Position numbers and translations under genes: made by a program. A stretch of 64,000 nucleotides of DNA. Origin: Candidatus Nomurabacteria bacterium (lineage in GTDB: Bacteria > Patescibacteriota > Minisyncoccia > Phycocordibacterales > UBA918). The stretch lies in contig CP060228.1 in the NCBI GenBank assembly GCA_023898565.1, positions 156,170-220,169 of the forward strand, given 5' to 3'. Positions 14,846 to 40,880 of this stretch are shown piece after piece (positions within the stretch are counted from its first letter, which is position 1; each line of letters opens with the position of its first letter). The notes under the pieces are model-generated. The model did no database searches. It worked only from the letters and a program-made list of their open reading frames with translations, and had not been told where the DNA came from.

Positions 14846-14859
14846 ACAATTTTTCTTTA

Positions 14860-17800: not shown

Positions 17801-20800
17801 CTGGCAATTTCTATCAACGCATACGTCGACGTCGAATAAATACTATTTGCAACGATTGCGATGTTTGTGGTTTCTGCAATATCGATTGCAGGATGTGCAC
17901 CAGACAAACCTATTGAGTACAATTGGTTATTAGAAATGACATTGTTGGCAGCATTGCCGCCGTACCTACTATATGCAGCAATTGCGGCATGTCCAACATT
18001 CTCAATTTTGTTGTTAGAAATAGTGTTATCTGAAGCACCCCAACCTAGAAAGATACCGTTTGCACCAACAAAGCTGCCGAAGATGTTTCTGATAACATTA
18101 TTGCTAACAATATTATGTGAAGGAGCATAGCTATACGGAGCGTCAAAATAAATACCTGCACTAAGATTTGATAGCTGGTTACTCGAAATAACGTTGTACA
18201 TAGACTCCTCAGTTAGAGTAACACCCTTGCCAGTATTGGAGATAACGTTATTAGCAACATTAGAGTAAGTTATATTCTCGAAGTAAAGAGCACTGTCAGC
18301 ACTCGCCCACATTGTATTGTTCTGAATTGACAACCGACTCGAATTATATGCAGCTATGCCGTCCCAATTTTCACTAATGTTGTTACTAGCAACCTCCACA
18401 TCAGACGAACCGTCAATATCAATGCCTGCGATATTGTTATTCTTGATTCTTATGCGACTGGAAAGAAAAACGTTTATTCCATATATATGTTTATTATTTA
18501 TCACAAGAACATCAGTCGAATTGTTAACATCAGCACCATAGTTATCAACATTAACTACCTCAAGCTCAGATATGGTTGAGCTACTTGAATCACTGAGGTA
18601 CACCGCAGTTTGTGAACTAGATTGGTTTGCCTGATTACCATCAATTTTGAGACTAGAAATTGCCACTCGAGGAGTGCTGCTTGCTCTCAAAATAACCACA
18701 TCACCCAAATCGTTATTGTCCTTCAATTTAATCACAGTAGAAACTCCTTGCCCGATAAGCTGAGTGTTGGTCGCCATATTTATTGCGATACCTGGTGCGG
18801 TGGATGTAGAAACTTCAAAGTTACCAGCCAAGAGATACACCGTACCACCACCGCCATTGGCATACACATAATCAATCGCCTGCTGAATCTCAACTTCGTC
18901 ACTCGTACCATCAGCCACGTAGTCAGCATATGCCTTTTCTGCTGCTGGAGAGTCTGAGGCTGCCACCACCACGGAAGTGTCGCCTGCGGTATTGAGACAG
19001 TTTCCATCGGCAGTCTGGAAACATCCACCAGAGAGAGCGATACCATTGGTGAAAGTTGAGGTAGCTGTCGTAGATGCCACAATCGCTGTATTAAACGTAC
19101 TCGTCGCACTCGTAAATGCTCCAATCACATTCGCACCCACGGTGCTGCCAGTACCGAGCTTGAAAGTGTCGTCTGAATCATCAAGACCAAAGTAATAATC
19201 GAGTGCGTTACCATCAAACAAAGTAAAGGTGTCTTCAGCTAAGCCAGAGCCAAGCGTGTAGCCGCTCCCTGTTCCACCAGTAGAGGCGAGTGAAAGGATA
19301 CCAGAACTATCAACGCTCAGCTCTGCATAATTTGAACCATCATATGAAAGCCGGAGGCTGTTGCCTGCTCCGAAAATATCGAGCATCGCGCCAGGTGAAG
19401 CAGTACCCAAACCAAGATTGGTACCGTCGTACACAAAGGTGGAATCAAACGCGAGCGCTGAACCTGAGACATACGGAATCGCATTACTGGTATAAGACCC
19501 CGGCGTATCAGACAACCCTAAGAAAGTGCCATTACCAAGGCCGAGCGATGAGGTGGCAATGTCTGCCCAGGCGGTACCATTCCAGTAAAAAAGGTCACCG
19601 TAATTTTTGGTCATGGCCGCCACGTCAGACAATTCTTCAATAGAGTTGTCAGTCAAATTATCAGCCGTACGCGCTGTCTGTTGTGTTTCCCAAAAATTTG
19701 CTGAAGTTGTTGAGAAGCTATTAGCTATGTAATAACTACCCTCTTGACCATCGAATGTGCCCACCCAATCACCGCTCGTGTCGGACAAAAAGCCTAGACT
19801 AGAAGTTGCGACCCACTCCACACCCGCACCCGTAGTCTGAAGCACCTGACCAGTAGTACCTCGAGTAGCATTATTGTCATACACACCTCCCGTAAGAGCT
19901 ATATCGCCAGCTACTGATAGCTTGGCGTACGGTGAGGTGGTACCGATGCCGACGTTGCCAGTTGGAGTAATAACCGCTGCTGTACCAGAACCAAAAACAG
20001 AACTGTTGACATTAAATTCAATACCTTTTCCAGAACCTCCATGTATAGCAGTATTTGCAGTACTACCGTTATACCCAAACGCAGCACGATCATTAGTGAT
20101 ACCTATATAGTTTACATCCGTAATAGCACCGTAACGGTTGACATAGATATGCGAGCTAGTACTCGTTGTTTGTATACTACCTGACACGTCAAGCCTAGCA
20201 GTTGGTGTTGATGTCCCAATACCAACGTTGCCGCCCGAGGTGATGGTAAGCCGTGAAGTGTTATTGGTAATGAGTCGTAAATCATGATTTGAGAAGGTGC
20301 CTAGGAAGCCTTGGAAGTCCTCACTGCGTACATCAACTTTTACCTCATTGGTCGTATCAGTGAAGCGAGCGCCAGCATTTGTCGCGCCTGCAACATTTAA
20401 TAAGCGATCCATAGTAGTCGTGCCAATTCCTACTCTACCAGCAGCCGTCACTGTAAATAAATCATTCGAATTATAGTCCAGCAACGACAAAACATCGCCT
20501 GGTGCAATACTTCTAGTTTGCTGGATTGTTAATACTGGAGTGCCGTCAAAAGTATTAGCAATCATTTGATCAGCCTCATCGGAACGTAAGAAAGACGACG
20601 AGGCAACACCACCAAGCTTCATCGATTCGAAAGCGGCGGGCACTGCACCAAGTGGCTTGCGAGGTGACATCTCGCCGTCCCAGGCAGGCGCTCCAGTGCC
20701 GCCAATCTCCACACCCAAATAGAGCGTCTGACCGAAGTCGACACTAGTAAGCGGTGAAGTGGAGCCAAGCATTACGCTAAAAAGACCATTAGTGACTTGC

Positions 20801-21054
20801 ACTTGATCAGCGCCAGTGAGTGATTCGGTCCATACTGCCGACGTAGTAGCCTGACTGGTGCTCTGCAACAACCAAAAACGCATGTTGTACGAACCATCAG
20901 GCACTGCCACTCCTGAACTGTCGGTAAGCTTACCTTGGTAATTAATTTGCTGATTTGGCTCAGCAGATACAAAACTTACCGCAACAAACAAAGCAAACAT
21001 GGCAAGACTCATTGCCCTGGTCACTTTCTTGATTGTCGAATAAGCTAAAAACAT
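14860..21054 (-). CDS. Giant secreted surface protein (2064 aa): repeated GIGTTSP.AKL motif region, parallel beta-helix (pectin-lyase fold) repeats, and an acidic disordered C-terminal tail
   Basis: It has a signal peptide (MSLAMFALFVAVSFVSAEP). A motif is repeated at least seven times: GRVGIGTTTMDRLLNV, GNVGIGTSTPTARLDV, GNVGIGTTSPYAKLSV, LGLGTASPGAMLDI, LGLGTSSPAAKLSV, GIGTTSPWARFSV and GRVGIGTTSPAAKLAI. A long run of NNxI(S/A)xN beta-helix rungs follows (NNNIAGIDIDGSSDVEVASNNISEN...NNVISNTGKGV...SNNKIENVGH...). The C-terminal roughly 200 aa are rich in Pro, Glu, Thr and Ser. Confidence 0.65.
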   Translation of the reverse strand: MFLAYSTIKKVTRAMSLAMFALFVAVSFVSAEPNQQINYQGKLTDSSGVAVPDGSYNMRFWLLQSTSQATTSAVWTESLTGADQVQVTNGLFSVMLGSTSPLTSVDFGQTLYLGVEIGGTGAPAWDGEMSPRKPLGAVPAAFESMKLGGVASSSFLRSDEADQMIANTFDGTPVLTIQQTRSIAPGDVLSLLDYNSNDLFTVTAAGRVGIGTTTMDRLLNVAGATNAGARFTDTTNEVKVDVRSEDFQGFLGTFSNHDLRLITNNTSRLTITSGGNVGIGTSTPTARLDVSGSIQTTSTSSHIYVNRYGAITDVNYIGITNDRAAFGYNGSTANTAIHGGSGKGIEFNVNSSVFGSGTAAVITPTGNVGIGTTSPYAKLSVAGDIALTGGVYDNNATRGTTGQVLQTTGAGVEWVATSSLGFLSDTSGDWVGTFDGQEGSYYIANSFSTTSANFWETQQTARTADNLTDNSIEELSDVAAMTKNYGDLFYWNGTAWADIATSSLGLGNGTFLGLSDTPGSYTSNAIPYVSGSALAFDSTFVYDGTNLGLGTASPGAMLDIFGAGNSLRLSYDGSNYAELSVDSSGILSLASTGGTGSGYTLGSGLAEDTFTLFDGNALDYYFGLDDSDDTFKLGTGSTVGANVIGAFTSATSTFNTAIVASTTATSTFTNGIALSGGCFQTADGNCLNTAGDTSVVVAASDSPAAEKAYADYVADGTSDEVEIQQAIDYVYANGGGGTVYLLAGNFEVSTSTAPGIAINMATNTQLIGQGVSTVIKLKDNNDLGDVVILRASSTPRVAISSLKIDGNQANQSSSQTAVYLSDSSSSTISELEVVNVDNYGADVNNSTDVLVINNKHIYGINVFLSSRIRIKNNNIAGIDIDGSSDVEVASNNISENWDGIAAYNSSRLSIQNNTMWASADSALYFENITYSNVANNVISNTGKGVTLTEESMYNVISSNQLSNLSAGIYFDAPYSYAPSHNIVSNNVIRNIFGSFVGANGIFLGWGASDNTISNNKIENVGHAAIAAYSRYGGNAANNVISNNQLYSIGLSGAHPAIDIAETTNIAIVANSIYSTSTYALIEIASGAVDTTLASNHFENPNSTNYIADASASTRYNEWDRTTITTDSARGYNLFSIIGSTTATSAAITQLGAGDILTLDNASGRVLTMTNSGNLGLGTSSPAAKLSVAGNTWLDSNVINFASSSASSLLLHYFTAATSTVVNGDSFAWTIATSSSVSPIFRIDTSGSYANTLISGGFDVNNGAISYNAATNQTTIENLALGNMKFEDDAGVVTWTDMGVTAGASVGTVESYTAAIDGNSLLTLYGESDGAGSVTDLAVGIGTTSPWARFSVLGDATDATKPLLTVASSTGDALFHITNAGRVGIGTTSPAAKLAIQNTAFSGAGVVGLDQYLETQNSVLSAVQYGNRFFLDANNTATTTIVGSMIRLRDDTTYGNTVRTLEVQANRGANTYGENTAISAFARTFGVRAVTTGEAGDTYEPAAGFFETEGTAQGNAIRAYTDTLTTASLLSLFQSSSTFAGTGLEMNFGNGTGSFSSSTSKYLDFQNGGASVFTVSAYGTTTIGDGTTNHLAGLQIGFGGICVDNDGSCTASTSGRITSVESLTGNSDLAEMYFSSTNLEPGEVVVLDGELSIDRAEQGSDMPVLGVVSTKPGLLLGFDDSSLRAGERGYPLALSGRVPVKLSTENGPIKRGDSLMLSSLPGVAMKATGTGATIGIALEDFDDARKYSETYLNQFGDDMVEPVYEPIYTNLDPRLDDGCYYGGGNAVGDEPCVPLSATTTQGQIDEANHIAEAESVAEQMDALRDERSETKRLADGTAVKVGRVVMFVDRSYRWFDDSQLASLGTLFSTSSIETVGDNEDETIFDRLVTLANNFVDGVLSVFTLKADKVETSELCVDGVCVTADDLRTMLNTNSSAPVSSNNSPVTGEGSESSEEGAVSEPPTEVLPPNSATSTDEVATTTEEPPAPVETATSSSETEAEQGVPVTEAGEGLGDEVVAENEENIVITEDESLEVPEPPAADTTEADPVSATEEVEAESPHSEDAV

Positions 21055-21056
21055 AC

Positions 21057-21779
21057 CTACATATTTGAAGACGATACAGGCACCCTTACAAAAGGCACTT
21101 CATTACCGACTTGATTACCGCTTGCGTCCACCGGAACAATCACTTGCGAACCATCAGAAAGACTTCGAACCTCTACTGTGTCGGAAAATAATCGTTCTGG
21201 TCGTTCTGTATTGAGCCCTGCCGGAAAAAGAATGATTCCATGATCAATCTCGCCGAGCGATGCTTGCGTAAATTGAGCCGTATCTTTCTGAGCCTGAGTC
21301 GCCGGCCGCTTTGCTTCTGAAACAACCGGACTTACTTGAGTCAACTGGGCCGATTGCTGTACGGTCACCTTGTCGGCAAGTGACACGTGAGCATTCGAGT
21401 GTTTTAGTTGGTACGCCCCTTGCCCCGCAAGCAAACCAACCCCGAGCACAAATGCAGCGGCAAAGGCAGCCCGTGCGTTAAGGGAATGTGCCTTTTTAAT
21501 CTGTAGGGTGCGACGTTCTTCAACAGCCTCACGCAACTGACGCTCACGCTTCCTCTCTTGACTTAAAATCTTTTTTCGTACCTCTTGCTCAAGCGCAGCG
21601 TTTTCTGCGTACGACTTGAGTGAAGCGAGATCGACAAACCACTGTCGACCGATGTAAGAAGCGACAACTTTACCTTCACGAGCGAGGCGCGTGATGTAAT
21701 CACGCGAATACGTTGTCGACCGAGCTGCTTCCTTGATTGGATGCAGTACTTTTCCATCAATCTCGAGTGAGCTATTCAT
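21057..21779 (-). CDS. Membrane-tethered HTH protein (N-terminal excisionase/MerR-like HTH_17 domain, coiled coil, single TM, extracytoplasmic C-domain)
   Basis: The N-terminus IKEAARSTTYSRDYITRLAREGKVVASYIGRQWFVDLASLKSY fits the HTH_17 pattern (EaA..lgvs..tvyRl...G.lpa.kiGrrwrv....L). It is followed by a charged helix, a TM segment AAFAAAFVLGVGLLAGQGAY, and a tail of about 115 aa. It lies 2 nt upstream of the giant protein gene. Confidence 0.5.
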   Translation of the reverse strand: MNSSLEIDGKVLHPIKEAARSTTYSRDYITRLAREGKVVASYIGRQWFVDLASLKSYAENAALEQEVRKKILSQERKRERQLREAVEERRTLQIKKAHSLNARAAFAAAFVLGVGLLAGQGAYQLKHSNAHVSLADKVTVQQSAQLTQVSPVVSEAKRPATQAQKDTAQFTQASLGEIDHGIILFPAGLNTERPERLFSDTVEVRSLSDGSQVIVPVDASGNQVGNEVPFVRVPVSSSNM

Positions 21780-21862
21780 ATCGATTTAACTTTAATTATA
21801 AAGCTGAATCGACTACTCGAAGAACGTTTATATGTGTATAACTTTTACTACATTAATCACTC

Positions 21863-26065: not shown

Positions 26066-28585
26066 CTACTTAACTAATTTCCACCCTTCTGCCAAGAGCG
26101 GTTCAGCTTTTTTAAATTTGAGCTCTTGTGTCTCTGAGCCATTGGTGATAGTTACCACATCATTACGACTGTGCGTCTTATTGGCCACAACCGGTGCGCG
26201 TTTCTTGCTCTGCGATTCTACTGTCTCACCAGCTGATTGCTGCGCAACTTCAGCTTCATGCTTTCGTTCTTCTTCTTCCTTGGCTACCACTTGTGGCTGA
26301 ATGCGTGGCAATACTTCTGAAAGTCGCACGAAGAGAGCTTGTTGCATTTCCTTGAAGAGACGAGTGCCCTCCTTGCGATATTCAATCAGCGGGTCACGCT
26401 GTCCGTAGGCACGCAAACTCACACTTGAGCGCGTATAACCCATAACTTCAAGATGTTCCACCCAGAGCATATCGATCATTTGGAGCGTGAGGCGACGAAA
26501 CACATCAGTGAAAACTTCAGCACCGAATTCTTGTTTCTTAGCCACAACCACTGCCTCTAACTCCGGGAACTCGTCAGTGAATTCCTCCATAACACTCTCC
26601 ACTTCGGCCGGTTCACCAGTGAGCAGTTTGCGTCGACGAGCATAAATAGCCTGGCGCTGCACATTGAGTACATCATCGTAGGCAAGCACCTGCTTACGAG
26701 CATCAAAGTGGAACCCTTCGATCTTAGACTGAGCGCTCTCTAACGTGCGGGAAATCATACCCATTTCAATTGGCTGATCTTCGGGAATCTTAAACGTACC
26801 CATGAGGCTTTTCACTCGATCGCCACCAAAGACACGCATAAGCGAGTCATCCATTGAAACGAAGAACTGGGTTTCACCAGGGTCTCCCTGACGACCAGAA
26901 CGACCACGTAGCTGGTTGTCGATTCGACGTGCCTCGTGACGCTCAGTACCGAGCACAAAAAGCCCACCAAGTTCTTTCACCTTTTTCGCCTCATCCTTGG
27001 ACGCATCAGGTCCACCAAGCTTAATGTCGACACCGCGACCCGCCATGTTGGTAGCGAGCGTCACCGCACCTGGGCGACCAGCTGCCGCGATAATCTCACC
27101 TTCATGTTCGTGGTTCTTTGCGTTAAGCATTTCGTGCTTAATACTAGCAGTAGCAAGCGCCGCTGAGAGACGTTCGTTTGACTCAATTGAAGCAGTACCA
27201 ATCAAAATTGGCTGACCCTTGGCATGCACCTCTTTCACTTTTTCAATAATCGCTGCGAACTTACCTTTTTCGTTCTGATAGATGAGGTCGTTACGATCAA
27301 TACGTTGCACCTCACGATTAGTTGGTACCGGAATTACTTCAAGCTTGTACACCGTATAAAACTCCTCTTGTGAAGTCATCGCCGTACCGGTCATGCCTGA
27401 CAACTTATCATACATACGGAAGTAATTTTGATACGTAATAGACGCAAACGTTTTTGACTCTTTCTGAATCTGTACAGACTCCTTGGCTTCAACCGCTTGA
27501 TGCAAGCCGTCAGACCAACGTCGACCAGGCTGCAAACGACCAGTAAACTCGTCGACAATAACTACTTCACCATCACGCACCACATATTCCTTATCGCGGG
27601 TAAAGAGAGCTTTCGCACGAACAGCTGTCTCAAGATGATGTACATACTTAAGACCTTTCTCGGTATAAATATTTTCAATGCCGAGCATCTTTTCAGCCGC
27701 CTCAATCCCTGCATCAGTGAGCGTTGCACTCTTGTGCTTCTCGTCAACAGTGAAGTGCTCTTCGATATTTAGTCGTGCGGCAATGGTGGCAAAGGTTGGA
27801 TATAGATTCTCTGTGTCTGAAGCCGGTGCAGAAATAATAAGCGGGGTACGAGCCTCATCAATCAGGATGGAGTCAATCTCGTCGATAATGGCATACGCAT
27901 GGTGCGGTTGGCGTAACTTTGCTGCGTCGTACTCAATGTTGTCGCGCAAGAAATCAAAGCCGAACTCGCTGTTGGTACCATACGTAATGTCGGCAGCATA
28001 CGCCTCTTGACGCGTACATGGACGAAGAAACTCATGTACCACCTTGTATGAACCTTTTTCATCACGCTCAGCATCCTTCTCCTGATGCTCAGGGTCGTAG
28101 AGATACGACTCTTCATGATTTACAATACCAACACTGAGTCCGAGCTTGTTGTACACCTGACCCATCCACACCGCATCACGGCGCGCAAGGTAATCATTAA
28201 CGGTTACCACATGAACACCCTTGCCAGTGAGTGCATTGAGCGTCGCTGGCAGCGTTGCTACCAATGTTTTACCTTCACCCGTACGCATTTCGGTAATTTT
28301 CCCGCGGTGCAAGATAACACCACCAATGAGCTGCACATCGTAATGACGCATACCCTGTGTACGCTTAGCCGCCTCTCGCACCAGTGCAAACACATCAGGT
28401 AAAACCGCATCCAAATCGTCTGGACCGGATACTTTTGCTTTGTTTGCTTGCAAACGAGACACTAACTCATCATCAGACAACGCAGCGATTGCCTCCTCTC
28501 GACTATTAACATCAGCGACAATTGGCTTGATTGCCTTTAGTTCCTTTTCGTACGTAGGACCGAAAAATCTATCCAAAAATGACAT
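26066..28585 (-). CDS. secA: Preprotein translocase ATPase SecA
   Basis: The start was trimmed to MSFLDRFFGPTYEKELKAIKPIV (ATG whose complement is cat at 28583-28585). It has DEAD motor, PPXD and HWD/HSD regions throughout, for example GEGKTLVATLPATLNALTGKGVHVVTVNDYLARRD. Confidence 0.95.
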   Translation of the reverse strand: MSFLDRFFGPTYEKELKAIKPIVADVNSREEAIAALSDDELVSRLQANKAKVSGPDDLDAVLPDVFALVREAAKRTQGMRHYDVQLIGGVILHRGKITEMRTGEGKTLVATLPATLNALTGKGVHVVTVNDYLARRDAVWMGQVYNKLGLSVGIVNHEESYLYDPEHQEKDAERDEKGSYKVVHEFLRPCTRQEAYAADITYGTNSEFGFDFLRDNIEYDAAKLRQPHHAYAIIDEIDSILIDEARTPLIISAPASDTENLYPTFATIAARLNIEEHFTVDEKHKSATLTDAGIEAAEKMLGIENIYTEKGLKYVHHLETAVRAKALFTRDKEYVVRDGEVVIVDEFTGRLQPGRRWSDGLHQAVEAKESVQIQKESKTFASITYQNYFRMYDKLSGMTGTAMTSQEEFYTVYKLEVIPVPTNREVQRIDRNDLIYQNEKGKFAAIIEKVKEVHAKGQPILIGTASIESNERLSAALATASIKHEMLNAKNHEHEGEIIAAAGRPGAVTLATNMAGRGVDIKLGGPDASKDEAKKVKELGGLFVLGTERHEARRIDNQLRGRSGRQGDPGETQFFVSMDDSLMRVFGGDRVKSLMGTFKIPEDQPIEMGMISRTLESAQSKIEGFHFDARKQVLAYDDVLNVQRQAIYARRRKLLTGEPAEVESVMEEFTDEFPELEAVVVAKKQEFGAEVFTDVFRRLTLQMIDMLWVEHLEVMGYTRSSVSLRAYGQRDPLIEYRKEGTRLFKEMQQALFVRLSEVLPRIQPQVVAKEEEERKHEAEVAQQSAGETVESQSKKRAPVVANKTHSRNDVVTITNGSETQELKFKKAEPLLAEGWKLVK

Positions 28586-28711
28586 AATGGGCGTAGTATA
28601 GCGCAATCTGACCAAAGATAAAGGCTTCTACTATTGCACTACGCAAAATCGCCCCAAAGGGCGATTATGCAATAAGTCGAACACGGAGGTGACGAACACC
28701 GTCCGTCCTAA

Positions 28712-28900
28712 CTACTTTTTTTTCGAAGCTGTCTTCTTCTTTGCGGTCTTCTTTACTGCTTTCTTTGCAGTCTTCTTTACCGCTTTCTTGGTAGCTTTCT
28801 TTGCAGTCTTCTTTACTGCCTTCTTTGCTACCTTCTTAACAGCCTTCTTTGCAACTTTCTTAGCTGGCTTCTTAGCCACCTTTTTCTTTGCTGCTGGCAT
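28712..28900 (-). CDS. Lysine/alanine-repeat histone H1-like small basic protein
   Basis: MPAAKKKVAKKPAKKVAKKAVKKVAKKAVKKTAKKATKKAVKKTAKKAVKKTAKKKTASKKK is encoded by imperfect 21-nt tandem repeats. The track ORF starts earlier at a TTG at 28966, and neither candidate start has an SD. The FFAVFF ORF on the + strand is its mirror image. Confidence 0.5.
   Translation of the reverse strand: MPAAKKKVAKKPAKKVAKKAVKKVAKKAVKKTAKKATKKAVKKTAKKAVKKTAKKKTASKKK
28730..28880. repeat. Imperfect 21-nt (7-codon AKKAVKK) tandem repeats inside the lysine-rich gene
   Basis: Units of the form ctttctttgcagtcttctttac recur with substitutions about 7-8 times. Confidence 0.6.
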
Positions 28901-29047
28901 AGCGTGATGAGAGATACTTGTATGAATAAAGTTCGACCGCAAGACCTTCTCATTTTCAAAGAACAAACCAGGAGAAGATTTTTGCTTACAAATATTATGG
29001 CGCGTTATTAATCGTTACACAATTTTTTTTACAACCATTTTGGGGAT

Positions 29048-29085
29048 AAAAAAATTTCTTTAAAAATTTTTTAAAGAAATTTTTT
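29048..29085. promoter_or_regulatory. 38-bp AT-only near-perfect palindrome at the murB stop
   Basis: aaaaaatttcttttaaaaa | ttttttaaagaaattttta, with the dyad centre near 29066/29067. It lies between the murB 3' end and the lysine-rich gene. Confidence 0.3.
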
Positions 29086-30202
29086 ACCCGTATTTTTTCT
29101 CGCGATCATTACTCAAAACAAAATGTACCTCTGGCTCAATCGTAATTCCAAACGTACTCTCAACTGAGCGTATAATTAAGGTGACAAAATCGAGCACATC
29201 GCTTGCTGTTGCACCGACTTCTGTCACCACTGAGAGTGAATGCCTAGGTGAAATGCCGACCACTCCTCTATATCGCTTCTCACCATACGTGCGCTTGTTG
29301 TATGCGCTACACTCAAGCAAAAACGCAGTAGAAATTTTTTCTTCTGCTTCAGAAACCTCCCAGTGCCAGGGAGACATTTTTTCATCAAGTTCAGAAAACG
29401 TTTCATGCACCACCGACTGAATTTCAGCAAACTGTTTTTTACTCACGATTGTGTTTTTGAAAAACGATCCCGCTGAGCGAAACTGTCCCGCGAGCATGCC
29501 AATGTTGCTGCGCACATGCAGAATCGCTGCACGGATATCTGCCAAGCCAGGCTCAGCAACACCTTGTTCCTCTAGATATCGCGCAATGCTTTGTGACGAA
29601 CTACGATACTGGAGATTTACTACCGCAGCTTTTGTCAGCAAAAACACCACTTCCAACACCACCAAATCAGCTCCCGCCGCATGTTTGAAAGTACTATCTC
29701 GATACCCAAACGCGCACTCCGCAGCGGTTAGTACTCGTTCAACTCCGGCCTGCACATCGTACACGCGCACCGCCTCAATCACATCAGCTACCTGTGCTCC
29801 GTACGCATTGATGTTCTGAATTGGTGCGGCACCGACAGTGCCCGGTATTCCTGAGAGATTTTCGAGACCTGACAAATCTCGCTCAACTGTTGCTGCTACA
29901 AAAGCGTCCCACGGCTCTCCAGCAGCAGCGGTGACGCGCACTATAGCGTCATCAGCGGTCGCCTCAAACGAAACTCCAGTAAGCTCATTTTTAATCACGA
30001 GTCGACCAATCACTCCATCATCGATAAGCACATTTGACCCTCCCCCAAGCACCCATATGGGCACTTTGTGCTCTTGTGCAAAAGCTGACAGTTCCGGCAA
30101 AACTTGTTCATCAGTGAGTCGATGAAAATACGCAGCAACACCACCTACATGTAAGGTGGTGTGCACATCCAACGGAATATTTTCTTCTACTCGTACTGTC
30201 AT
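29084..30202 (-). CDS. murB: UDP-N-acetylenolpyruvoylglucosamine reductase
   Basis: The start was set at MTVRVEENIPLDVHTTLHVGGVAAYF (ATG whose complement is cat at 30200-30202), which avoids overlap with the upstream gene. It has an FAD-binding domain (LGGGSNVLIDDG) and a MurB C-terminal domain (ECAFGYRDSTFK). Confidence 0.85.
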   Translation of the reverse strand: MTVRVEENIPLDVHTTLHVGGVAAYFHRLTDEQVLPELSAFAQEHKVPIWVLGGGSNVLIDDGVIGRLVIKNELTGVSFEATADDAIVRVTAAAGEPWDAFVAATVERDLSGLENLSGIPGTVGAAPIQNINAYGAQVADVIEAVRVYDVQAGVERVLTAAECAFGYRDSTFKHAAGADLVVLEVVFLLTKAAVVNLQYRSSSQSIARYLEEQGVAEPGLADIRAAILHVRSNIGMLAGQFRSAGSFFKNTIVSKKQFAEIQSVVHETFSELDEKMSPWHWEVSEAEEKISTAFLLECSAYNKRTYGEKRYRGVVGISPRHSLSVVTEVGATASDVLDFVTLIIRSVESTFGITIEPEVHFVLSNDREKKYG

Positions 30203-30206
30203 AGTA

Positions 30207-32429
30207 CTAACAACCCTCCTGCGGATCGTTACCGTTCTCAATGTTGCCAATGAAACAGTTGGCAGTGGTCTCGAAATCTGGCAACGCCTCCTTTGCCTCT
30301 TCTAGCACAGTAATTGCCTGCTCCGGCTCACTATTTTGGTAGTAGAGATACGCGAGTGTGGCCCATGTCTGTGGCTCTTCAGCCCACTTCTGTGCACCAT
30401 CTGGCGCAGCCTGGGTGCGATACTCGAAGAGTTTAATTGCAATGTCGTACTGCCCAAACTGATTGGCGGCGCTGATGAGGAAGTCGCTCGCTGCCAAGCG
30501 ACGCATAATTGCGTCATCGGTGATTCGATCATCAGCACTTATCATAAGTAATCGCGCTTCATCTGGCTTTTGCGCATACAAAAGTCCCGCTGCGTAATAC
30601 TCACGTGCCTCAAGATTGCGCACGTCGAGTTCAAAGGCGGTCTTAAAGTATTCGAGCGCCTCGTCATTCTTTCCTTCTGAGAGCGCCACAAAACCTTGCT
30701 GCTCAATAATGGCCTGCTTTAGCGGTGAGTATTCACGCGCGAGTGCCATATGCTCAGCTGCTCTCTCAAGATTACCAATCGCGCGATAGTAACTTCCCAC
30801 AAACACATGCACGCGCGCGTCACCAGGCTTTTCCGACACTAAGCGACTCAGTTGTTCTTCAGTGTAGGACTGATACTCGGCCCGTACCGCTTCAGGAATC
30901 TTTGTGTCACGCACCACACTCATAGTTTGCTGAGCCAATTGTTCAGTAATCTCTTGATGAGCAAATGATTCGCGACCAATCGCCTGCTTAAAGTATCCGA
31001 GTCGCTCAGCCGGATCTGCCGCACGAAAAGCCAAAATAATATCACCTGCCGCATGCATACCCGGCACATGCGCAAAGTAAATCACCGCCACCACAAGCAC
31101 GGCCATGACCGGCGCAGCAAATTGTTCAATGATTGACTTGTCTACCTTCCACTCCGCTACAGCCTTTGGCACGAGTCCAACTCGTGAATTAATCAAACCA
31201 AGAATAATTGCAAAGAAGATGTAGCTGACAATATTGTCAAACACTACGAGATTGTGGGTGAAGTACCCGGCCAAGATACCAAGGAGCACCCCACGCTCCA
31301 TCGCATTAAACGCATGATCCTCCTTGTCGATAAGTGGACGAACAAGCAGGTACCACACGCACCACCCAAAGATGCTGAGATACACCACCAAACCAAGGAT
31401 GCCGCCGGTCACCAGCCAATCCATGAAAATGTTGTGCGATCGATCAAACCACTGCTCTTGACCGTACAGTCGTGGATCATAGTATTTGTTAAAGACGTAA
31501 TTGAAGTTGCTCTGGCCATACCCAAGGACTGGACTTTCTTTCACCCCTTCCCAAGCAGTACCCCAAATGATAGTTCTGATTTCCAAGTCGCCCAGAGAAA
31601 TATTGGCGATACGTGCCAAGTTTGGGCTATTCTGCACAAATGCGGTATCACGAGCCGCAATAAACGTACCAACGCCAAGTAGTAGCACCACAAATGCACC
31701 GATGGCATACTTGCGATACTGCACAAACTGCTTGCCGAAGAGACCAATGTACGCTGCCATCACCATGATGCCAACCGCCAAACCAATTGCCGTACCACGA
31801 GTACCGGTCTCGATGAGCACAAAGGTAAACATGGCAGCCAGCACGCCATAGAGCACTTTATGGAACGTGACACGCGTCTCTACAAAGAGCCAAAACGCTA
31901 CGAAAATATGGAAGAGCATGTACACCGCCATGTATGCGGCATTACCCAAACGGCTATCGATACGACTGCTGCCATCGACAAATCCACCATACTGCGCCAA
32001 GCCATAAAACGCTACTGCAAACGCCACGAAGAGTGAGGTGTTGAGCAGTCGCTGCCAATGCTCTTTCGTTTGCAGCACACTTCCTGCCACCAGCATGTAC
32101 AAGAATGTGTGCACAAGCGATACGTAGCCATCCATACGCTCGAAGTTGCTCCAGAAGCTTACATTGCGATTGAGACCCCACCAGTCGGCCGCAAACATCA
32201 CCACCAAAAGCGCACCAAAGCTCCAGACAATACCCGAAACTTTCGGCCGATACTTTACTTCATACAACGCGAGAATTGCCCACGCCGCGAATGTTACATC
32301 GACAATAATGCGAAACCAAAAATTCTTACCAGTAATGTACGGGAAGAAGTAATCATTCTCCACGTACAAGGTCAAAAACGGCACGGCAAAAATACCTGCG
32401 TAGACCAACCATTTCATTACGTCTTTCAT
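30207..32429 (-). CDS. O-antigen ligase (Wzy_C) family polytopic membrane protein with C-terminal TPR repeats
   Basis: It has about 12 TM helices with a Wzy_C-like core (GTRGTAIGLAVGIMVMAAYIGLFG). The soluble C-terminal portion has TPR-like repeats (LERAAEHMALAREYSP..., EALEYFKTAFELDVRN...). Confidence 0.65.
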   Translation of the reverse strand: MKDVMKWLVYAGIFAVPFLTLYVENDYFFPYITGKNFWFRIIVDVTFAAWAILALYEVKYRPKVSGIVWSFGALLVVMFAADWWGLNRNVSFWSNFERMDGYVSLVHTFLYMLVAGSVLQTKEHWQRLLNTSLFVAFAVAFYGLAQYGGFVDGSSRIDSRLGNAAYMAVYMLFHIFVAFWLFVETRVTFHKVLYGVLAAMFTFVLIETGTRGTAIGLAVGIMVMAAYIGLFGKQFVQYRKYAIGAFVVLLLGVGTFIAARDTAFVQNSPNLARIANISLGDLEIRTIIWGTAWEGVKESPVLGYGQSNFNYVFNKYYDPRLYGQEQWFDRSHNIFMDWLVTGGILGLVVYLSIFGWCVWYLLVRPLIDKEDHAFNAMERGVLLGILAGYFTHNLVVFDNIVSYIFFAIILGLINSRVGLVPKAVAEWKVDKSIIEQFAAPVMAVLVVAVIYFAHVPGMHAAGDIILAFRAADPAERLGYFKQAIGRESFAHQEITEQLAQQTMSVVRDTKIPEAVRAEYQSYTEEQLSRLVSEKPGDARVHVFVGSYYRAIGNLERAAEHMALAREYSPLKQAIIEQQGFVALSEGKNDEALEYFKTAFELDVRNLEAREYYAAGLLYAQKPDEARLLMISADDRITDDAIMRRLAASDFLISAANQFGQYDIAIKLFEYRTQAAPDGAQKWAEEPQTWATLAYLYYQNSEPEQAITVLEEAKEALPDFETTANCFIGNIENGNDPQEGC

Positions 32430-32934
32430 ATGGGTGAAACTATACCACGTACGCCCGATAAGCTCCGACTAGACGAGGCCGAGATTTGGAGGTGTAGGCT
32501 ATACACAGAAAGACTGGTGGGCGCTTCACTACAAGAGTACTTCAATTTTCATAGTCGCTTCGCTTCTTGAAAATTTAGTCGCACGACCCACCGGTTTTAT
32601 CCTCTACCGTTTCTCTCCCTTTCTTTTCCCTTCTTTCTCGCGCAGCTCTTTGTGTCCACTGTCACCATTTCTCAATTGCTCTTGCAAGACATAAACTGCA
32701 GTCACTTTGCACATTTTTACGAGAAACAACACATCAAACTTAAAGAGACATCTTTAAAGGTTCTACTTATGGTTAACAATGTACTTAATTACTAATTAGC
32801 TGCTAATATTAACCTATGAGAAAGATGCAAAATTTTGGTTACACTATTTTGTAACTAATTACAAAGTATAACTGTTAGACACTAGATGTGGTCATACAGA
32901 ATTTGTAACATCGAATTCATTCTTCAGGAAAATT

Positions 32935-34161
32935 ATGATTGAAAAACTCTTAAATTTGATAAGGTCTCATCGGCATCATCTCACAAACGGTGGATTTTTA
33001 GCCTACTCCAATCTAATCACCTCAATCACAAGCTTCGGCATTGTCTATATATTTGCTAATTTTATACCGCAAGAAACTTTCGGTACATATAAATATGTTC
33101 TGTCGATTGCAAGCATTCTGTCCATTTTTACACTTCAAGGAATGAATACTGCGGTCGCGCAGTCAGTGAGTCGCGGCTACGAAAACGCTCTCAAAGAAGG
33201 TATCCGCACCAAAATGTTATTCGGAAGCATTGGAACAGCTATTGGTTTGACTATAAGTGCATACTACTTTCTTCAAGAGAACACCATACTGGGAAGCTCT
33301 TTTTTAGTCACCGCTCTTGCAATACCTTTTTTTGGCACCTTTAACTTATACCGATCATACCTCAACGGGAAGAAAGAATATAAAGCAATCGCTCGCGAAA
33401 CTACATTGTACAATATAGCTTTTTTTCTATTGTTCTCTGCCGTACTGCTCCTAACCAATAACATTGTCGTTATACTACTTGGTTACTTTTTATTTTCCGT
33501 TCTGCTGCAACTATATATCTACCTTAAAATTTCACGAACACTCCGCAACACCCAACAAACAACTGACCCTGAGATTGTCGGGTACGCAAAACACCTATCG
33601 CTACTCAAAGGACTTACCGTTGCCTCTGGCTCCATTGGCACCATAGCTCTTTGGCAAATCCTGGGCCCTCTTGCCCTCCCTGTATACACACTGGCACTCG
33701 CACCGATTGAACAAGTCCGGCCAATGCTTCAGCTAACTGAAAACCTACTCATGCCAAACATGGCTCAAAAAACATGGAGAACCTACTCCATTGGATGGTT
33801 TTTTAAAAAATCTGCAACTTTTCTTCTCATAATCTTGCTTCTTGTGGCCATTTACATTGGCTTAGCGCCACTTATCTATGAGCTATTCTTCCCAAATTAT
33901 GCAGAATCTGTCTTTCTTTCACAGGTGTTTTCAGTAAGCCTTCTGTTCACAGGCATCAACATCATCCTGATGACTATAATGAAATCAAAAAAACAAATCC
34001 GTAATCTCTATCTAAGTAACGGCATTCTTATTTTCTTTGACCTTTTGACGATACCCGCTATCTATTTCTTCGGCATTTTAGGACTTGTAGTTAATGTACT
34101 ACTCGGAAAAGCTTTTCTGACACTCGTTAGTTTATTCTTGATATTCAAACGAACTCGCTAA
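32935..34161 (+). CDS. Wzx-like oligosaccharide flippase (MOP/polysaccharide biosynthesis protein family)
   Basis: At 408 aa it has about 12 TM helices and an N-terminus typical of Polysacc_synt proteins (GFLAYSNLITSITSFGIVYIFANFIPQETFGTYKYVLS). It is the first gene of the AT-rich island. Confidence 0.7.
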   Translation: MIEKLLNLIRSHRHHLTNGGFLAYSNLITSITSFGIVYIFANFIPQETFGTYKYVLSIASILSIFTLQGMNTAVAQSVSRGYENALKEGIRTKMLFGSIGTAIGLTISAYYFLQENTILGSSFLVTALAIPFFGTFNLYRSYLNGKKEYKAIARETTLYNIAFFLLFSAVLLLTNNIVVILLGYFLFSVLLQLYIYLKISRTLRNTQQTTDPEIVGYAKHLSLLKGLTVASGSIGTIALWQILGPLALPVYTLALAPIEQVRPMLQLTENLLMPNMAQKTWRTYSIGWFFKKSATFLLIILLLVAIYIGLAPLIYELFFPNYAESVFLSQVFSVSLLFTGINIILMTIMKSKKQIRNLYLSNGILIFFDLLTIPAIYFFGILGLVVNVLLGKAFLTLVSLFLIFKRTR

Positions 34162-34166
34162 AATTC

Positions 34167-34934
34167 CTATTGCATAGGTTTCGTGGCCACAGAGATTACT
34201 CGACGACCTTTGTTATTTTCACACTTATTAAAATACTTAGGCCAGATACTAAGATTGTAATGACTAGAAAGCTTTTTAAGTGTCCAGATTTTATTGTCAA
34301 TCAACTTATCATAAATCTTAAGTGGATGAAAACCCATTTTGTCCTGCCCCACCACTTCTTTAACATCAAAAAAGGGACTTAGTGTGTCGGTCAGCTTTTG
34401 TGCTGAAAAATGCTGGTAATGCTTCGGTCCAGGAGGCAGCGCATCTGATGGAACAGTTACAATAAACTCACCTCCCGGCTTCAACATCCTGCTCACCTCT
34501 TTTAAGAGAGACGGTATTTCATCAGGGATGATATGTTCTAACGTTTCAATCATGAAAATAACATCAAAATAGTTACTCTCGCACGTAACTTCATTAGCAA
34601 TATTTTTAGATGAAAATGTAACATTAGGCAAAAGTAGTTTTGCAAACGATATTGCCCTCTCTGAATAATCTATACCATAAAGACTGTGTTGATATCGATC
34701 TTCTAATTCTTTTAAGAAACGTGCATCACCACACCCTAAATCAAGAATTTTCAAAGTACGAGATTCTTTCATTAAAGATGACTGTCTTATTGCAAGGTCA
34801 AGATAACCAAAGTACAAGCGACCCGAAGAAGTGGAACTTTTCTTACACCAGTGATATGGATAACTGTACTCATCTTCCTGTATTTGCTGCTCTAATGTTA
34901 AATCTTTTTTTGTCATATTTACGAAGTTTAGCAT
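34167..34934 (-). CDS. Class I SAM-dependent methyltransferase
   Basis: It has motif I ILDLGCGDARFLKEL and post-I motifs (FDVIFMIETLEHI, LKPGG). Confidence 0.7.
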   Translation of the reverse strand: MLNFVNMTKKDLTLEQQIQEDEYSYPYHWCKKSSTSSGRLYFGYLDLAIRQSSLMKESRTLKILDLGCGDARFLKELEDRYQHSLYGIDYSERAISFAKLLLPNVTFSSKNIANEVTCESNYFDVIFMIETLEHIIPDEIPSLLKEVSRMLKPGGEFIVTVPSDALPPGPKHYQHFSAQKLTDTLSPFFDVKEVVGQDKMGFHPLKIYDKLIDNKIWTLKKLSSHYNLSIWPKYFNKCENNKGRRVISVATKPMQ

Positions 34935-34937
34935 AGC

Positions 34938-35864
34938 TTAAACACGCAATGCTTTTTTATCGGCAATAAATCTCATTATTTTTGAAGAAAAAGGAAGTAC
35001 TGAAAAAGCAAAAAACAAAAAATATCTACCTCTCCATGAGTACAGAAACGCCTGCCAGGCGTTCCAAAGAGCCCTTCTTTTATTGCCGCCAAGAAGCAGA
35101 CCAACAGCAGCACCATATGCATGACCCGCATACTTATCGCGTGCATCTGCAACCAGATACAGATACCTATGTTTTAATAGGAAAGCGTCTAGAACGGGAC
35201 CCCTTTCAATTGAGAGCGCAACGTTCATCTTTTTCCTCTGAATTGTAAGCGACATTGAGTCTGACTCTAAAAATACTTCACCACAGGTTTCATTAATGTA
35301 GGCAATGTTGCTTCCAGATTTTTCCAATATTTCAATATAAAACATGAAGTCAATTCCTCTGGAACGAAACCGCACGTCATCTATCAAATTTCTTTTAACT
35401 GCAATAATTTCAGCATCTTGAGGCCTTCGTCCCCCAACCCAATCATATTTTGTTAAAAGACCCGTTTGACAACGCGGGAGCATTTGCGGCTCTCCATCAT
35501 TACGATAGAAAACAGTACTTGCACAAACGACCCCAACCTCAAATTTTTGGAAACCACTTAACAAAACCTCGAGAGCATTAGGCAGTAACAAGTCATCACT
35601 GTCCCATATAATTAAAGCATCTCCAGTCGCATGTTCTATGCCCGTATTCCTAGCAACTGTCGCAGCTCCGTAGTTTCTATTTAATTTGATGTATTTAATG
35701 CGCTGATCTTTAAATCTACCCATCACTTTCTGAGTATCATCCGTAGAACCATCATCTACAACCAGAAGTTCAAATTTTTGATATTTTTGGCTAAGAACAC
35801 TTTCAACACACTTTTGCAAAACCTTAGACCGATTGTAAGTAGCAACAATGATACTAAATTTCAT
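34938..35864 (-). CDS. Family 2 glycosyltransferase
   Basis: FSIIVATYNRSKVLQKCVESVLSQKYQKFELLVVDDGSTDDT is the GT-A N-terminus, and a DxD-like IWDSDD is present. Confidence 0.8.
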   Translation of the reverse strand: MKFSIIVATYNRSKVLQKCVESVLSQKYQKFELLVVDDGSTDDTQKVMGRFKDQRIKYIKLNRNYGAATVARNTGIEHATGDALIIWDSDDLLLPNALEVLLSGFQKFEVGVVCASTVFYRNDGEPQMLPRCQTGLLTKYDWVGGRRPQDAEIIAVKRNLIDDVRFRSRGIDFMFYIEILEKSGSNIAYINETCGEVFLESDSMSLTIQRKKMNVALSIERGPVLDAFLLKHRYLYLVADARDKYAGHAYGAAVGLLLGGNKRRALWNAWQAFLYSWRGRYFLFFAFSVLPFSSKIMRFIADKKALRV

Positions 35865-36595
35865 AAGCCAATATTTTTCCGTACTGATTTTAGTACACTC
35901 AAGAATCTGGTATGTCTCTCATAGAGATACTCGTCAACGATATCGCCACCAAAACCCAACTTAAATCTGTTAATCCCAGATTTTGACTCGTCGGTCATAT
36001 TAATGTATGCCAAATCTACATATTCAAATCCTCTTGCCCCGCCAAAGCAGCAAACTTCGTATATCAGCCTCTTACTTATATAGCCAATATCTTTCTGAGA
36101 AACGTTTTCATCATGCTTTCTTGATGAAAAAATTGAAATGACCTTTAAAACAGGATTAGCATCAATAAGATAAATGCCGGAAACCACCTTCCCGTTACAG
36201 CAACCAAGCGCCCAAATACCGTTTGCATTCCTTCTCTTGAGAGACGGGCGATTGCTTTCTTTTTCAAATACATCATACAAAGAGTAACCTTCCTCAGAAA
36301 AACCCTTAACTAGCTTAAACGAATAATTTTCTTTGTATGTTTTACGAATTTCGTTTCTATAATTCTTTTTAAATGAGAGTAAAATATCCTCGTCCGTCTT
36401 ACTTGTCAAAAAAATTCTTGTTGTTTTTTTAACTCGACTCAGTTTGAAATCGTCCGGCAAATTCATCGGAAGATAGGAATATACCCTCGCAGAGTGAAAT
36501 GAGTATTTTCTTATAACATCTAAAACAACGTTTTCACTTTCGTAATAAATCTCACACACTCTTATTAAATTGTAAACTGTTTTTTTTCTAATCAT
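35861..36595 (-). CDS. Hypothetical protein, possibly a FemAB/GNAT-like (Acetyltransf_6-like) acyltransferase
   Basis: The C-terminal region ...LIYEVCCFGGARGFEYVDLAYI... weakly resembles the BioF2/FemAB-like acetyltransferase fold. The gene is embedded in the glycan cluster. Confidence 0.3.
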   Translation of the reverse strand: MIRKKTVYNLIRVCEIYYESENVVLDVIRKYSFHSARVYSYLPMNLPDDFKLSRVKKTTRIFLTSKTDEDILLSFKKNYRNEIRKTYKENYSFKLVKGFSEEGYSLYDVFEKESNRPSLKRRNANGIWALGCCNGKVVSGIYLIDANPVLKVISIFSSRKHDENVSQKDIGYISKRLIYEVCCFGGARGFEYVDLAYINMTDESKSGINRFKLGFGGDIVDEYLYERHTRFLSVLKSVRKNIGL

Positions 36596-37257
36596 TTCTT
36601 GTTACGACAAACGAAATAGGTCGTCTTACTGAACCACGGGAAGAATCTGTAAATCTTATCTTTCCAATTTAAATTATCTTCTTTTGCCAATGAAATCTTA
36701 TGAATAATTTCTATATCCCTGAAATATTTTTTAAGTTTAAAAAAATCTGACGGGCTTGTTCTGTATGTTTTAAGTTCATGATAATAATCAAATCTACCAG
36801 AAAAAAAACGGTGCAACTTTTTTAAATATAAACGATTATGAGAACTAAAAATAAATACACCGTCTCTTTTTAATACACGCGCAGCTTCTGACACGGCAGA
36901 ATAGATATCTGGTTCAACATAATCAATGCCGTGAAAAGGAAAAAAAATTGTGTCAAACGTATCATCTTCAAATGCTAGTCGACTAGCATCCATCTCAAAT
37001 ACTTTTACTTGATATCCTGCCATTCTTTTTTTTGACTGGTCAACCATTTCAGGAACAATGTCAACTCCTGTAACACAGAATCCTAAATCATGCAGTGGCT
37101 TCAGAGTTCTCCCTCCACCACACCCAAGCACTAACACATTATCTCTTTTAAAGTGTTTCTTTGCTAAAATTTCCTCATCGTGCCCCCAATAATTTACTTC
37201 ACCATATTGACTGGCTTGGTGTGCATATACTTTCTTATTCTGTTCAGATATGCTCAT
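36592..37257 (-). CDS. Class I SAM-dependent methyltransferase
   Basis: Motif I is NVLVLGCGGGRTLKPLHDLGFCVTGVDIVPEMV, and LKRDGVF is also present. Confidence 0.7.
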   Translation of the reverse strand: MSISEQNKKVYAHQASQYGEVNYWGHDEEILAKKHFKRDNVLVLGCGGGRTLKPLHDLGFCVTGVDIVPEMVDQSKKRMAGYQVKVFEMDASRLAFEDDTFDTIFFPFHGIDYVEPDIYSAVSEAARVLKRDGVFIFSSHNRLYLKKLHRFFSGRFDYYHELKTYRTSPSDFFKLKKYFRDIEIIHKISLAKEDNLNWKDKIYRFFPWFSKTTYFVCRNKK

Positions 37258-38018: not shown

Positions 38019-38030
38019 AGTAATGACTAA

Positions 38031-39182: not shown

Positions 39183-39195
39183 ACGTAATTTTTAA

Positions 39196-40859: not shown

Positions 40860-40880
40860 ATGTATAACAATATCATTCGC

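Follow-up and report, generated by a model that had tools for sequence, protein, structure and literature searches.

Bacterial proteins of the "histone H1-like" type, composed of Lys- and Ala-rich repeats, are well known. In Hc2 (HctB) of Chlamydia, a protein of 165-237 aa with Lys-rich pentamers arranged in 36-aa elements, the Lys/Ala repeats bind DNA, and the length of the protein varies by gain and loss of repeat elements (PMC2848022). In Pseudomonas, the repeat region of PhaF binds RNA, AlgP associates with polyphosphate granules, and the number of repeats varies between species (PMC12818456). Here we describe a minimal member of this general type, encoded on the minus strand directly upstream of secA in a 64,000-nucleotide stretch (the window) of a Candidatus Nomurabacteria bacterium genome (contig CP060228.1). 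The gene, termed here the K gene, is a real, conserved, protein-coding gene that starts at ATG 28900. Its 62-aa product, the K protein, would coat nucleic acids as a simple polycation, and is not new in kind. Several of its features were not found in the literature searched: a free-standing form without further domains, as short as 13 aa and widespread in Paceibacteria; the systematic annotation of a wrong start; the deep conservation of operator, promoter, leader and terminator; and the linkage to secA. The literature searched likewise provided no link of such a protein, of its upstream box TTATCCACA or of leaderless or Shine-Dalgarno (SD)-less initiation with the K gene in Patescibacteria, and a metatranscriptome paper on Paceibacteria does not discuss the K gene.

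Read from the ATG, the K protein (MPAAKKKVAKKPAKK...KKK) contains 31 Lys, 15 Ala, 7 Val, 5 Thr and 2 Pro among its 62 residues (50% Lys) and is devoid of acidic, aromatic or bulky hydrophobic residues. It is thus similar to the tails of histone H1, which are Lys/Ala-rich with some Pro, Thr and Val and contain no acidic or aromatic residues; the polyanion-induced helicity expected from AlphaFold2 (AF2) and, by analogy, a presumed charge-neutralizing and condensing action would be further common traits. Unlike H1, the K protein is bacterial, only 62 aa long and without a winged-helix globular domain (Pfam searches at E<=10 gave noise only); the entire protein is repeat, in an x-x-K-K register rather than S/TPKK or KPAA. 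With Hc2 and the Hc2-like proteins of Bordetella and Burkholderia (BpH1 type) it shares the nature of a bacterial Lys/Ala-repeat protein and the occurrence of in-frame duplications, whereas its repeat unit of 4, 8 or 12 aa (as determined by autocorrelation and shuffles), its length, its phylum, its promoter and its leader are different. In AlgP and PhaF the Lys/Ala-rich, polyanion-binding region consists of KPAA repeats attached to a folded N-terminal domain; the K protein contains no KPAA, only two Pro residues and no other domain.

Searches with the K protein of Pfam, NCBIfam, PHROGs, the PDB and a set of 5.8 billion proteins (E<=1e-3) returned nothing usable. No match to the Hc2 profile was obtained in Pfam or NCBIfam, where the composition correction of HMMER suppresses low-complexity matches and so lessens the weight of a missing hit. 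The original prediction had noted a resemblance to AlgP, Hc2 or BpH1. This is valid for the composition, which is like that of H1 tails and bacterial H1-like proteins, and does not establish family membership, given the lack of a profile match, the different repeat unit and the missing folded domain. Homology to Hc2, AlgP or BpH1 cannot be established, as low-complexity sequence cannot prove homology.

When the threshold was relaxed to E<=10, compositional look-alikes appeared, which carry unrelated source names (e.g., "YycI", "RNase J1/J2"); some of them are true family members with mis-called starts. The entries P0009, P0032, P0054 and P0087 (L161 602..835) are K-family proteins that start inside the leader and bear 30-45 spurious N-terminal residues. 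Exact look-up of 10 ATG-started orthologues found none of them present, because the database entries start upstream, in the leader. AKK-repeat tails also occur in other architectures (protein groups P0001/P0004/P0010 etc.; P0025/P0026/P0038/P0041/P0044; P0005/P0017/P0042/P0049): an N-terminal transmembrane (TM) helix followed by an acidic linker and the tail; an N-terminal tail followed by a conserved C-terminal "...EAYYIYRER...GNPESDWLAAE" domain; and a topoisomerase I C-terminal repeat (PF13368) with the tail.

Conservation, coding status and start of the K gene

The open reading frame (ORF) extends on the minus strand from a TTG at 28966 to the TAG at 28712..28714 and includes an internal ATG at 28900. 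The coding sequence (CDS) is as follows:

28712..28900, minus strand: the K gene, a lysine-repeat CDS of 62 codons plus TAG (MPAAKKKVAKKPAKKVAKKAVKKVAKKAVKKTAKKATKKAVKKTAKKAVKKTAKKKTASKKK)

It is flanked by murB (29084..30250) and secA (26066..28585), each confirmed by Pfam. Farther out on the same strand, and likewise confirmed by Pfam, a Wzy_C/TPR membrane protein is encoded upstream, while a Phage_holin_4_2-family protein, obg and gatB follow downstream.

Searching with the N-terminus of SecA yielded 80 loci, with SecA identities of 55-84%. Nearly all are metagenome-assembled genomes of Patescibacteria, labelled Paceibacteria, Kaiserbacteria, Nomurabacteria, Zambryskibacteria and similar; three of the most distant loci carry other labels and are possibly bin contaminants. 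In 51 of the 80 genome loci, secA is immediately preceded by a small K/R-rich ORF of the same strand. The gene is also present, partly masked, in L035, as well as in seven metagenome loci and in L161-L165, for a total of about 60 orthologues of 13-106 aa with a restricted K/R/A/V/T/P alphabet.

The genes are usually arranged as Wzy-like, murB, K gene, secA, holin-family, obg. Even where murB is missing (about 15 loci), the K gene abuts secA. In a second clade (SecA 54% identical) the upstream genes are rpsP, khpA and an opposite-strand helix-turn-helix (HTH) gene, and the K gene again directly precedes secA. Between the K gene and secA lie 59 to 441 nt. A clean absence of the K gene was noted for L007, L009, L025, L056 and L065, where murB ends 40-60 nt before secA. 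In L166, from an SD-using lineage, a similar small K-repeat ORF lies by prmC-prfA-rpmE, without the upstream box or the leader motif GGTCGA described below. The adjacency to secA is therefore persistent, not obligatory.

The window represents a Patescibacteria (Paceibacteria-type) genome that is almost without SD sites: an SD-like motif was detected at one of 47 putative gene starts in a scan of the window. No SD precedes either TTG 28966 or ATG 28900, as had already been noted in the original prediction. Since so few starts in the window are SD-like, and since a subgroup of Parcubacteria lacks the 16S anti-SD motif (Tsurumaki et al. 2022, PMC9297842), a missing SD is normal for this genome and no argument against the K gene.

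The residue alphabet, start and codon usage were assessed on 52 orthologous sequences. Overall they consist of 45% K, 22% A, 9% V, 8.5% R, 8% T and 4% P; D, E, F, W, Y, L, C, N and Q do not occur. All share an invariant Met1, followed by Ala or Pro at position 2 and by Lys or Arg at positions 4-6. In 13 loci an in-frame stop occurs 1-5 codons before the ATG. The conserved loop motif TTGTTCTTTGAA of the leader begins with the TTG itself (28964..28966), and a conserved-looking "N-terminal extension" (…SCGRNLF…) proved to be the nucleotide conservation of the leader, translated in frame. The invariant Met1, the upstream in-frame stops and the overlap with the loop motif rule out TTG 28966 as the start. 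The original prediction had correctly recognized a small lysine-repeat gene upstream of secA, which is indeed conserved and coding; the ambiguity it had left between the two starts, and hence between 62 and 84 aa, resolves to the ATG and 62 aa.

Could the ORF nevertheless have arisen incidentally, from an A/G-rich repeat without coding function or from a locus for a structured RNA? Its low complexity, the open antisense frame, the missing SD, the lack of a profile or database family match and the conservation of its flanks at the RNA level would all be compatible with such an origin, which we nonetheless consider hardly credible. About 60 loci retain the frame together with its Met start and its stop despite divergent nucleotides and lengths, rather than showing a broken frame, the outcome that the original prediction had named as damaging to it. 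All indels are in frame, and the alternative sense frames are interrupted by stops in 34-41 of the 52 loci. Moreover, Arg is encoded by CGN in 154 of 212 cases; as the replacement of Lys by Arg proceeds mostly via CGN codons, positive charge, and not A/G-rich DNA, is what is conserved. The codon usage of the K gene is also strongly biased compared to that of the surrounding long ORFs (AAG 77% vs 49%, GCA 60% vs 28%, GTA 57% vs 20%). The antisense frame 28689..28907 (plus strand), open over 72 aa and rich in F, A, V and T, is a mirror artefact of the Lys-codon repeats and is not to be called as a gene.

Repeat structure and length variation

The repetitive nature of the K gene is evident at lags of 12, 24 and 36 nt, where base identity is 0.62-0.66 compared to 0.41+-0.05 in codon shuffles (0 of 2000 reach these values). 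Tandem Repeats Finder (TRF) accordingly reported periods of 12 and 36. The 21-nt tandem repeats of the original prediction were rejected: identity at lag 21 nt is 0.364, i.e., background (z = -0.9 vs codon shuffles). The amino-acid repeat unit comprises four residues (x-x-K-K), with super-units of 8 and 12 aa, and the longest exact internal repeat in the K gene of the window measures 23 nt at an offset of 36.

The offsets of internal repeats in the orthologues are all multiples of three. Exact in-frame duplications were detected in L022 (60 nt), L027 (59), L051 (66), L034 (52) and L032 (41). As judged from these patterns, repeat units are gained and lost over evolutionary time. The proposal that the length is prone to vary was thus borne out by comparison across related genomes, in which the protein ranges over 13-106 aa via in-frame duplications. 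Variation between strains through slippage, which the original prediction also raised, is a possibility; the comparisons made here pertain to divergent genomes. None of the relatives is closer than about 84% SecA identity, and a metagenome scan aimed at strain-level relatives gave, among the matches listed, 71% identity at best.

Predicted promoter, leader and terminator

The K gene is embedded in an array of conserved sequence elements. From upstream to downstream, all on the minus strand, these are:

29041..29049, minus strand: DnaA-box-like 9-mer TTATCCCCA, with one mismatch (position 7) to TTATCCACA, about 58 nt upstream of the predicted transcription start
29023..29040, minus strand: A/T-rich spacer of 18 nt between the box and the -35
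29017..29022, minus strand: -35-like TTGTGT, kept as TTGTGT/TTGTAT/TTGTGC across loci, 17 nt upstream of the -10
28994..28999, minus strand: -10 CATAAT, GATAAT in most relatives and kept in nearly all loci
28939..28985, minus strand: leader hairpin, with closing pairs G28985-C28939 and C28984-G28940 (RNAalifold consensus)
28972..28979 and 28944..28951, minus strand: arms of the leader hairpin, ATCTTCTC and GAGAAGGT, respectively
28955..28966, minus strand: conserved hairpin loop core TTGTTCTTTGAA
28932..28938, minus strand: leader motif GGTCGAA, within GCGGTCGAA (28932..28940)
28904..28913, minus strand: pyrimidine-rich CTCTCATCAC, conserved just before the AUG in the leader alignment
28683..28708, minus strand: first hairpin of the 3' untranslated region (UTR), GGACGG ... 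CTCCGT (minimum free energy, MFE, fold); similar hairpins are visible in the 3' UTRs of relatives
28641..28670, minus strand: intrinsic terminator GCATAATCGCCC-TTTG-GGGCGATTTTGC plus a T-containing tail (fold)
28595..28600, minus strand: -10-like box TATACT of secA, 9 nt before its ATG (28583..28585)

The exact 9-mer TTATCCACA is found at the site of the upstream box, in the orientation of the K gene, in 47 of 57 orthologous loci, and 56 of the 57 have at most one mismatch. The 590 kb of loci hold only 57 exact boxes, 47 of them at the K-gene promoter site. In 43 loci, 40-43 nt separate the end of the box from the -10, so that the box comes to lie at about -62 to -54. Compared with the DnaA-box reference 9-mer TTATNCACA, the TTATCCACA of the relatives is a perfect consensus, whereas the window copy TTATCCCCA is mismatched at position 7. 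The -35-like hexamer matches E. coli TTGACA at three of six positions, and a generic promoter consensus scan did not list the K-gene promoter; such a weak -35 would suit activation from the upstream box. Based on the usual 7-nt distance and the invariant A7/A8 of the leader alignment, we infer a transcription start near 28986-28987. Between the window and L161, promoter and leader are 78.5% identical, and the SecA N-termini 72% at the protein level.

The combination of box, -10 and GGTCGA was encountered in 1.35 Mb at 12 K-gene promoters and at one gene of the HTH_17 type. In view of this distribution, GGTCGA or -10-N7-GGTCG as a general promoter feature was rejected. The box region was also considered as an oriC and dismissed: there is a single box and no change of sign in GC skew, and the box pairs of L057 and L059 precede an HTH_17-like gene, not dnaA.

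A second gene family with a TTAT(C/A)CACA promoter box, coding for a membrane protein with HTH_17-like repeats, was observed in many loci. The window copy, TTATACACA, is located at 21833..21841 (minus strand), upstream of the ORF 21060..21782 (minus strand), and the same box occurs at L001:8186, L043:11021, L048:5684, L059:12136, L071:10554, L073:10730 and L074:10359/11443. The products begin with M..I.V.GK.YISSK.AA..TGYS.DYVGQL.R.G and show a weak match to HTH_17, sometimes with two repeats and a TM helix. The K gene and the HTH_17-like family would then constitute a small regulon sharing the box, and the factor that binds it could be DnaA or an HTH_17-like protein. In L165, the interval that separates khpA from an HTH_5 gene (about 3215..3420, minus strand) holds an exact TTATCCACA, then TTGACT-N17-TATACT and, about 90 nt later, a hairpin and T-tract; it contains no ORF. 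The second clade may possess a box-driven small RNA here. An A/T-only palindrome, AAAAAATTTCTTTAAAAAATTTTTAAAGAAATTTTTTT (29048..29085; a 12-nt repeat by TRF), overlaps the murB stop and abuts the box, and may act as a weak bidirectional terminator or UP-like element.

The leader hairpin begins 1-2 nt from the predicted 5' end. A covariance model was built from 24 leaders and searched over 950 kb. It produced one match per locus, only upstream of the K gene (E 1e-8 to 1e-17); outside the seed it matched L081 and L083 (E ~1e-13 to 1e-14), L082 (6e-5) and the truncated L084 (0.005). In the covariance-model alignment 93.5% of cells are paired, compared to 42-65% in slid controls, and all eight stem pairs exhibit compensatory changes, with 40 double-change cells vs 11.1+-4.6 in shuffles (0 of 500); in these statistics related sequences were aligned to the model, which somewhat favors the structure. 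All 24 aligned leaders carry GCGGTCGA without variation. Of 52 leaders, 41 contain GGTCGA, mostly 30-40 nt ahead of the ATG; the hexamer recurs in the second clade, with its SecA identity of 54%. In distant lineages without the hairpin, GGTCGA is positioned exactly 7 nt after the -10, i.e., at the 5' end of the transcript; folding of the hairpin would likewise bring GGUCGAA beside the 5' end. The motif CTCTCATCAC shows no enrichment elsewhere in the window.

The leader of the K gene is hence a candidate new cis-regulatory RNA. Stabilizing stem-loops at the 5' terminus, such as the ompA 5' hairpin, and autoregulatory leaders of ribosomal proteins are known. The K-gene leader resembles both in its conserved hairpin, which lies close to the predicted 5' terminus of an mRNA that encodes a small basic protein, and differs from them in that it has no Rfam match and that GGUCGAA and the loop motif UUGUUCUUUGAA have no known counterpart. 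Indeed, Rfam gave no match at the gathering score in the window, and 28600..29100 yielded only noise with E above 1.

The loop motif UUGUUCUUUGAA is complementary over 7 nt (UUCUUUG:CAAAGAA) to the repeated GCA-AAG-AAx codons of the CDS (28715..28897); it is absent in L016, L024 and L028 and relocated in L062. The complementarity could reflect pairing between leader and CDS or coincidence between two low-complexity sequences. Two other pairings were discarded. An alternative pairing of the 3' arm (GAGAAG) with CUCUC before the AUG appears in the MFE fold of the window, the stability of which is at the level of shuffles (z = -0.06), and relatives with A/U-only stems (L024, L028) cannot form this switch; a 5'-3' UTR pairing of GGTCGAAC with GTTCGAC occurs in the window only and is not conserved.

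At the other end of the transcript, the terminator core TCGCCC-TTTG-GGGCGA is followed by TTTTGCGT, and its stem can be extended to 12 bp. A hairpin and T-tract follow the stop in all 52 orthologues (mean dG -18.5 vs -4.6 kcal/mol for shuffles), with stem sequences that differ between lineages. This test was applied per sequence; RNAalifold on a MAFFT alignment of the 3' UTRs found nothing, the stems being out of register. A consensus terminator scan did not list the terminator of the window, probably since part of the T-run can join the stem. The TATACT of secA is kept 9-12 nt before the ATG in relatives, which suggests a separate, leaderless-type secA transcript. With its promoter, its terminator and a secA that has its own -10, the K gene is, by these predicted signals, a monocistronic unit of its own.

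This arrangement bears directly on the possibility that the K ORF is a cis-acting upstream ORF or leader peptide, in which slow translation of the poly-basic stretch would tune secA. In E. coli, SecM is such a small regulatory ORF immediately upstream of secA; arrest peptides of its type are characterized by an N-terminal signal sequence, an arrest motif and translational coupling to the region where secA translation starts. The K gene occupies the equivalent same-strand position in 51 of 80 genome loci, and its adjacency to secA holds in the loci that lack murB upstream and in the second clade with its other upstream neighborhood. We regard a SecM-like role as very improbable, however. A strong terminator (52 of 52 orthologues) and a separate secA promoter intervene, the gap to secA is variable, and the K protein has no signal peptide, TM segment or hydrophobic residue with which to engage the Sec machinery. 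Furthermore, secA is intact where the K gene is missing (L007, L009, L025), and the similar K-repeat ORF of L166 is situated away from secA.

A TATACT/TATAGT-like box 6-12 nt before the ATG was observed at many starts in the window, e.g., secA (28583..28600), the Wzy-like gene near 32429 and genes near 5114, 44850 and 56072. Leaderless mRNAs would accordingly be the rule in this genome, in line with the loss of the anti-SD reported for a Parcubacteria subgroup (PMC9297842); the K gene deviates from the pattern by its leader of about 90 nt.

Other features of the window lie away from the K gene. A low-GC island at about 32000..44000 (0.34-0.42 vs 0.46-0.51 elsewhere) contains a polysaccharide biosynthesis cluster, with genes for GT2 and GT4 glycosyltransferases, for a methyltransferase and, on the opposite strand, for a Polysacc_synt flippase; the island was probably acquired horizontally or represents a variable surface-glycan locus. 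At 11636..21099 (minus strand) there are two very large ORFs of 1070 aa and 2064 aa, the former without a Pfam match. At 54009..56066 (minus strand) a homologue of TrwB/TraG-like type IV coupling proteins adjoins a gene for a bifunctional YkuD L,D-transpeptidase / D-Ala-D-Ala carboxypeptidase.

Proposed function and its implications

On balance, we favor the view that the K protein is a polycation that coats nucleic acids without sequence specificity and that it is most probably nucleoid-associated. This interpretation, by analogy, is preferred because of composition, precedent (Hc2, PhaF, AlgP) and context, the latter comprising the expression signals, the biased codons and the DnaA-box-like operator. 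Electrostatic binding, independent of sequence, would neutralize the charge of the nucleic acid. The most probable target would be chromosomal DNA, and the protein might form a minimal coat of the nucleoid, similar to a histone H1 tail or a protamine, in the ultra-small Patescibacteria. The dedicated unit, in which an operator-like TTATCC(A/C)CA box at about -58, a promoter, a leader with 5' hairpin and GGUCGAA, an SD-less AUG, a codon-biased ORF and a terminator follow one another, suggests high and regulated expression, possibly tied to DnaA and hence to replication.

The structural prediction is in keeping with such a role. Single-sequence AF2 modelled one continuous helix over residues 11-61 (predicted local distance difference test score 86.5), and the K protein is probably disordered when free and helical when bound. 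With K-K recurring every four residues, the charges spiral round the modelled helix and leave no amphipathic face, which would speak against a membrane-active peptide.

The foremost alternative is that the polycation is associated with RNA or the ribosome, as an RNA chaperone or translation factor that would aid mRNA recruitment or the work of the ribosome in a lineage without SD pairing. The nearly SD-free window (1 of 47 starts) and the Parcubacteria subgroup without anti-SD (PMC9297842) would provide the setting. Ribosomal protein uS19 of Parcubacteria is extended at its C-terminus by a lineage-specific, Ala/Lys-rich stretch of about 25 aa (PMC9297842); this stretch shares lineage and composition with the K protein and indicates that A/K-rich segments are used in the RNA machinery of these bacteria, although it is an extension of a ribosomal protein, whereas the K gene is free-standing, of variable length, and has a promoter and a terminator to itself. 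RNA binding and activation of translation are known for the KPAA-repeat region of PhaF (PMC12818456). Translation-related neighbors are present as well, namely rpsP-khpA upstream in L162-L165 and prmC-prfA-rpmE and rpsB-tsf in L166, and a structured leader on the K mRNA would suit autoregulation in the style of ribosomal proteins. The K gene departs, however, from the near-constant length and near-universal presence of ribosomal proteins: its 8-fold length range is unlike that of a stoichiometric ribosomal component, and it is absent at the locus in some close relatives (L007, L009, L025). Moreover, the DnaA-box-like operator points to replication or DNA, and the protein has no specific RNA-binding fold. 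We therefore view an RNA- or ribosome-associated role as possible, and as the less likely of the two.

The same charge pattern would bind any polyanion, and the K protein might thus organize polyphosphate granules or another polyanion. Such a function has its precedent in AlgP, a K/A/P-repeat H1-like protein that associates with polyphosphate granules according to PMC9239181 and PMC12818456. For the K protein we consider it improbable: no genes of polyphosphate metabolism are evident in the window, the KPAA motif and the N-terminal domain of AlgP are lacking, and the operator resembles a DnaA box.

Several observations weigh against a nucleoid-associated polycation. The K gene is missing at the locus in the close relatives L007, L009 and L025, and is therefore dispensable or located elsewhere. 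A nucleoid role leaves the persistent adjacency to secA unexplained, and one would expect a classical nucleoid protein to be much larger than the shortest orthologues (13-25 aa). The box is also found before an HTH_17-like gene, whose product, and not DnaA, may be the binding factor, and the window's own box (TTATCCCCA) deviates from the consensus. Lastly, the case for expression, abundance and DNA binding is built on composition and context, and composition alone cannot separate DNA, RNA/ribosome and polyphosphate as targets.

A more specific scenario may be put forward tentatively, and as a whole it is doubtful: packaging by a "histone tail only" in Paceibacteria and related members of the candidate phyla radiation (CPR), coupled to replication via the DnaA box at -58 and tuned by a leader with a hairpin, GGUCGAA and a codon-complementary loop. 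If true, these bacteria would possess a counterpart of the supply of histones that is coupled to replication, in cells whose small size precludes conventional nucleoid organization, and current gene calling would for the most part miss the K gene or mis-start it.

The literature searched contains no description of CPR chromatin proteins, and SD-less initiation in this group is only touched on (PMC9297842). Standard methods would overlook the K protein: trypsin would reduce it to peptides of 1-5 residues, profile searches suppress it, and gene callers prolong it into the leader. The 62-aa start should replace the longer calls. The operator, promoter, leader and terminator are testable elements in organisms in which almost no regulation is characterized, and include a possible DnaA regulon and a candidate cis-regulatory RNA. 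Patescibacteria/CPR account for a large share of bacterial diversity, and the K protein, if abundant, would be a candidate nucleic-acid-coating protein of these ultra-small cells.

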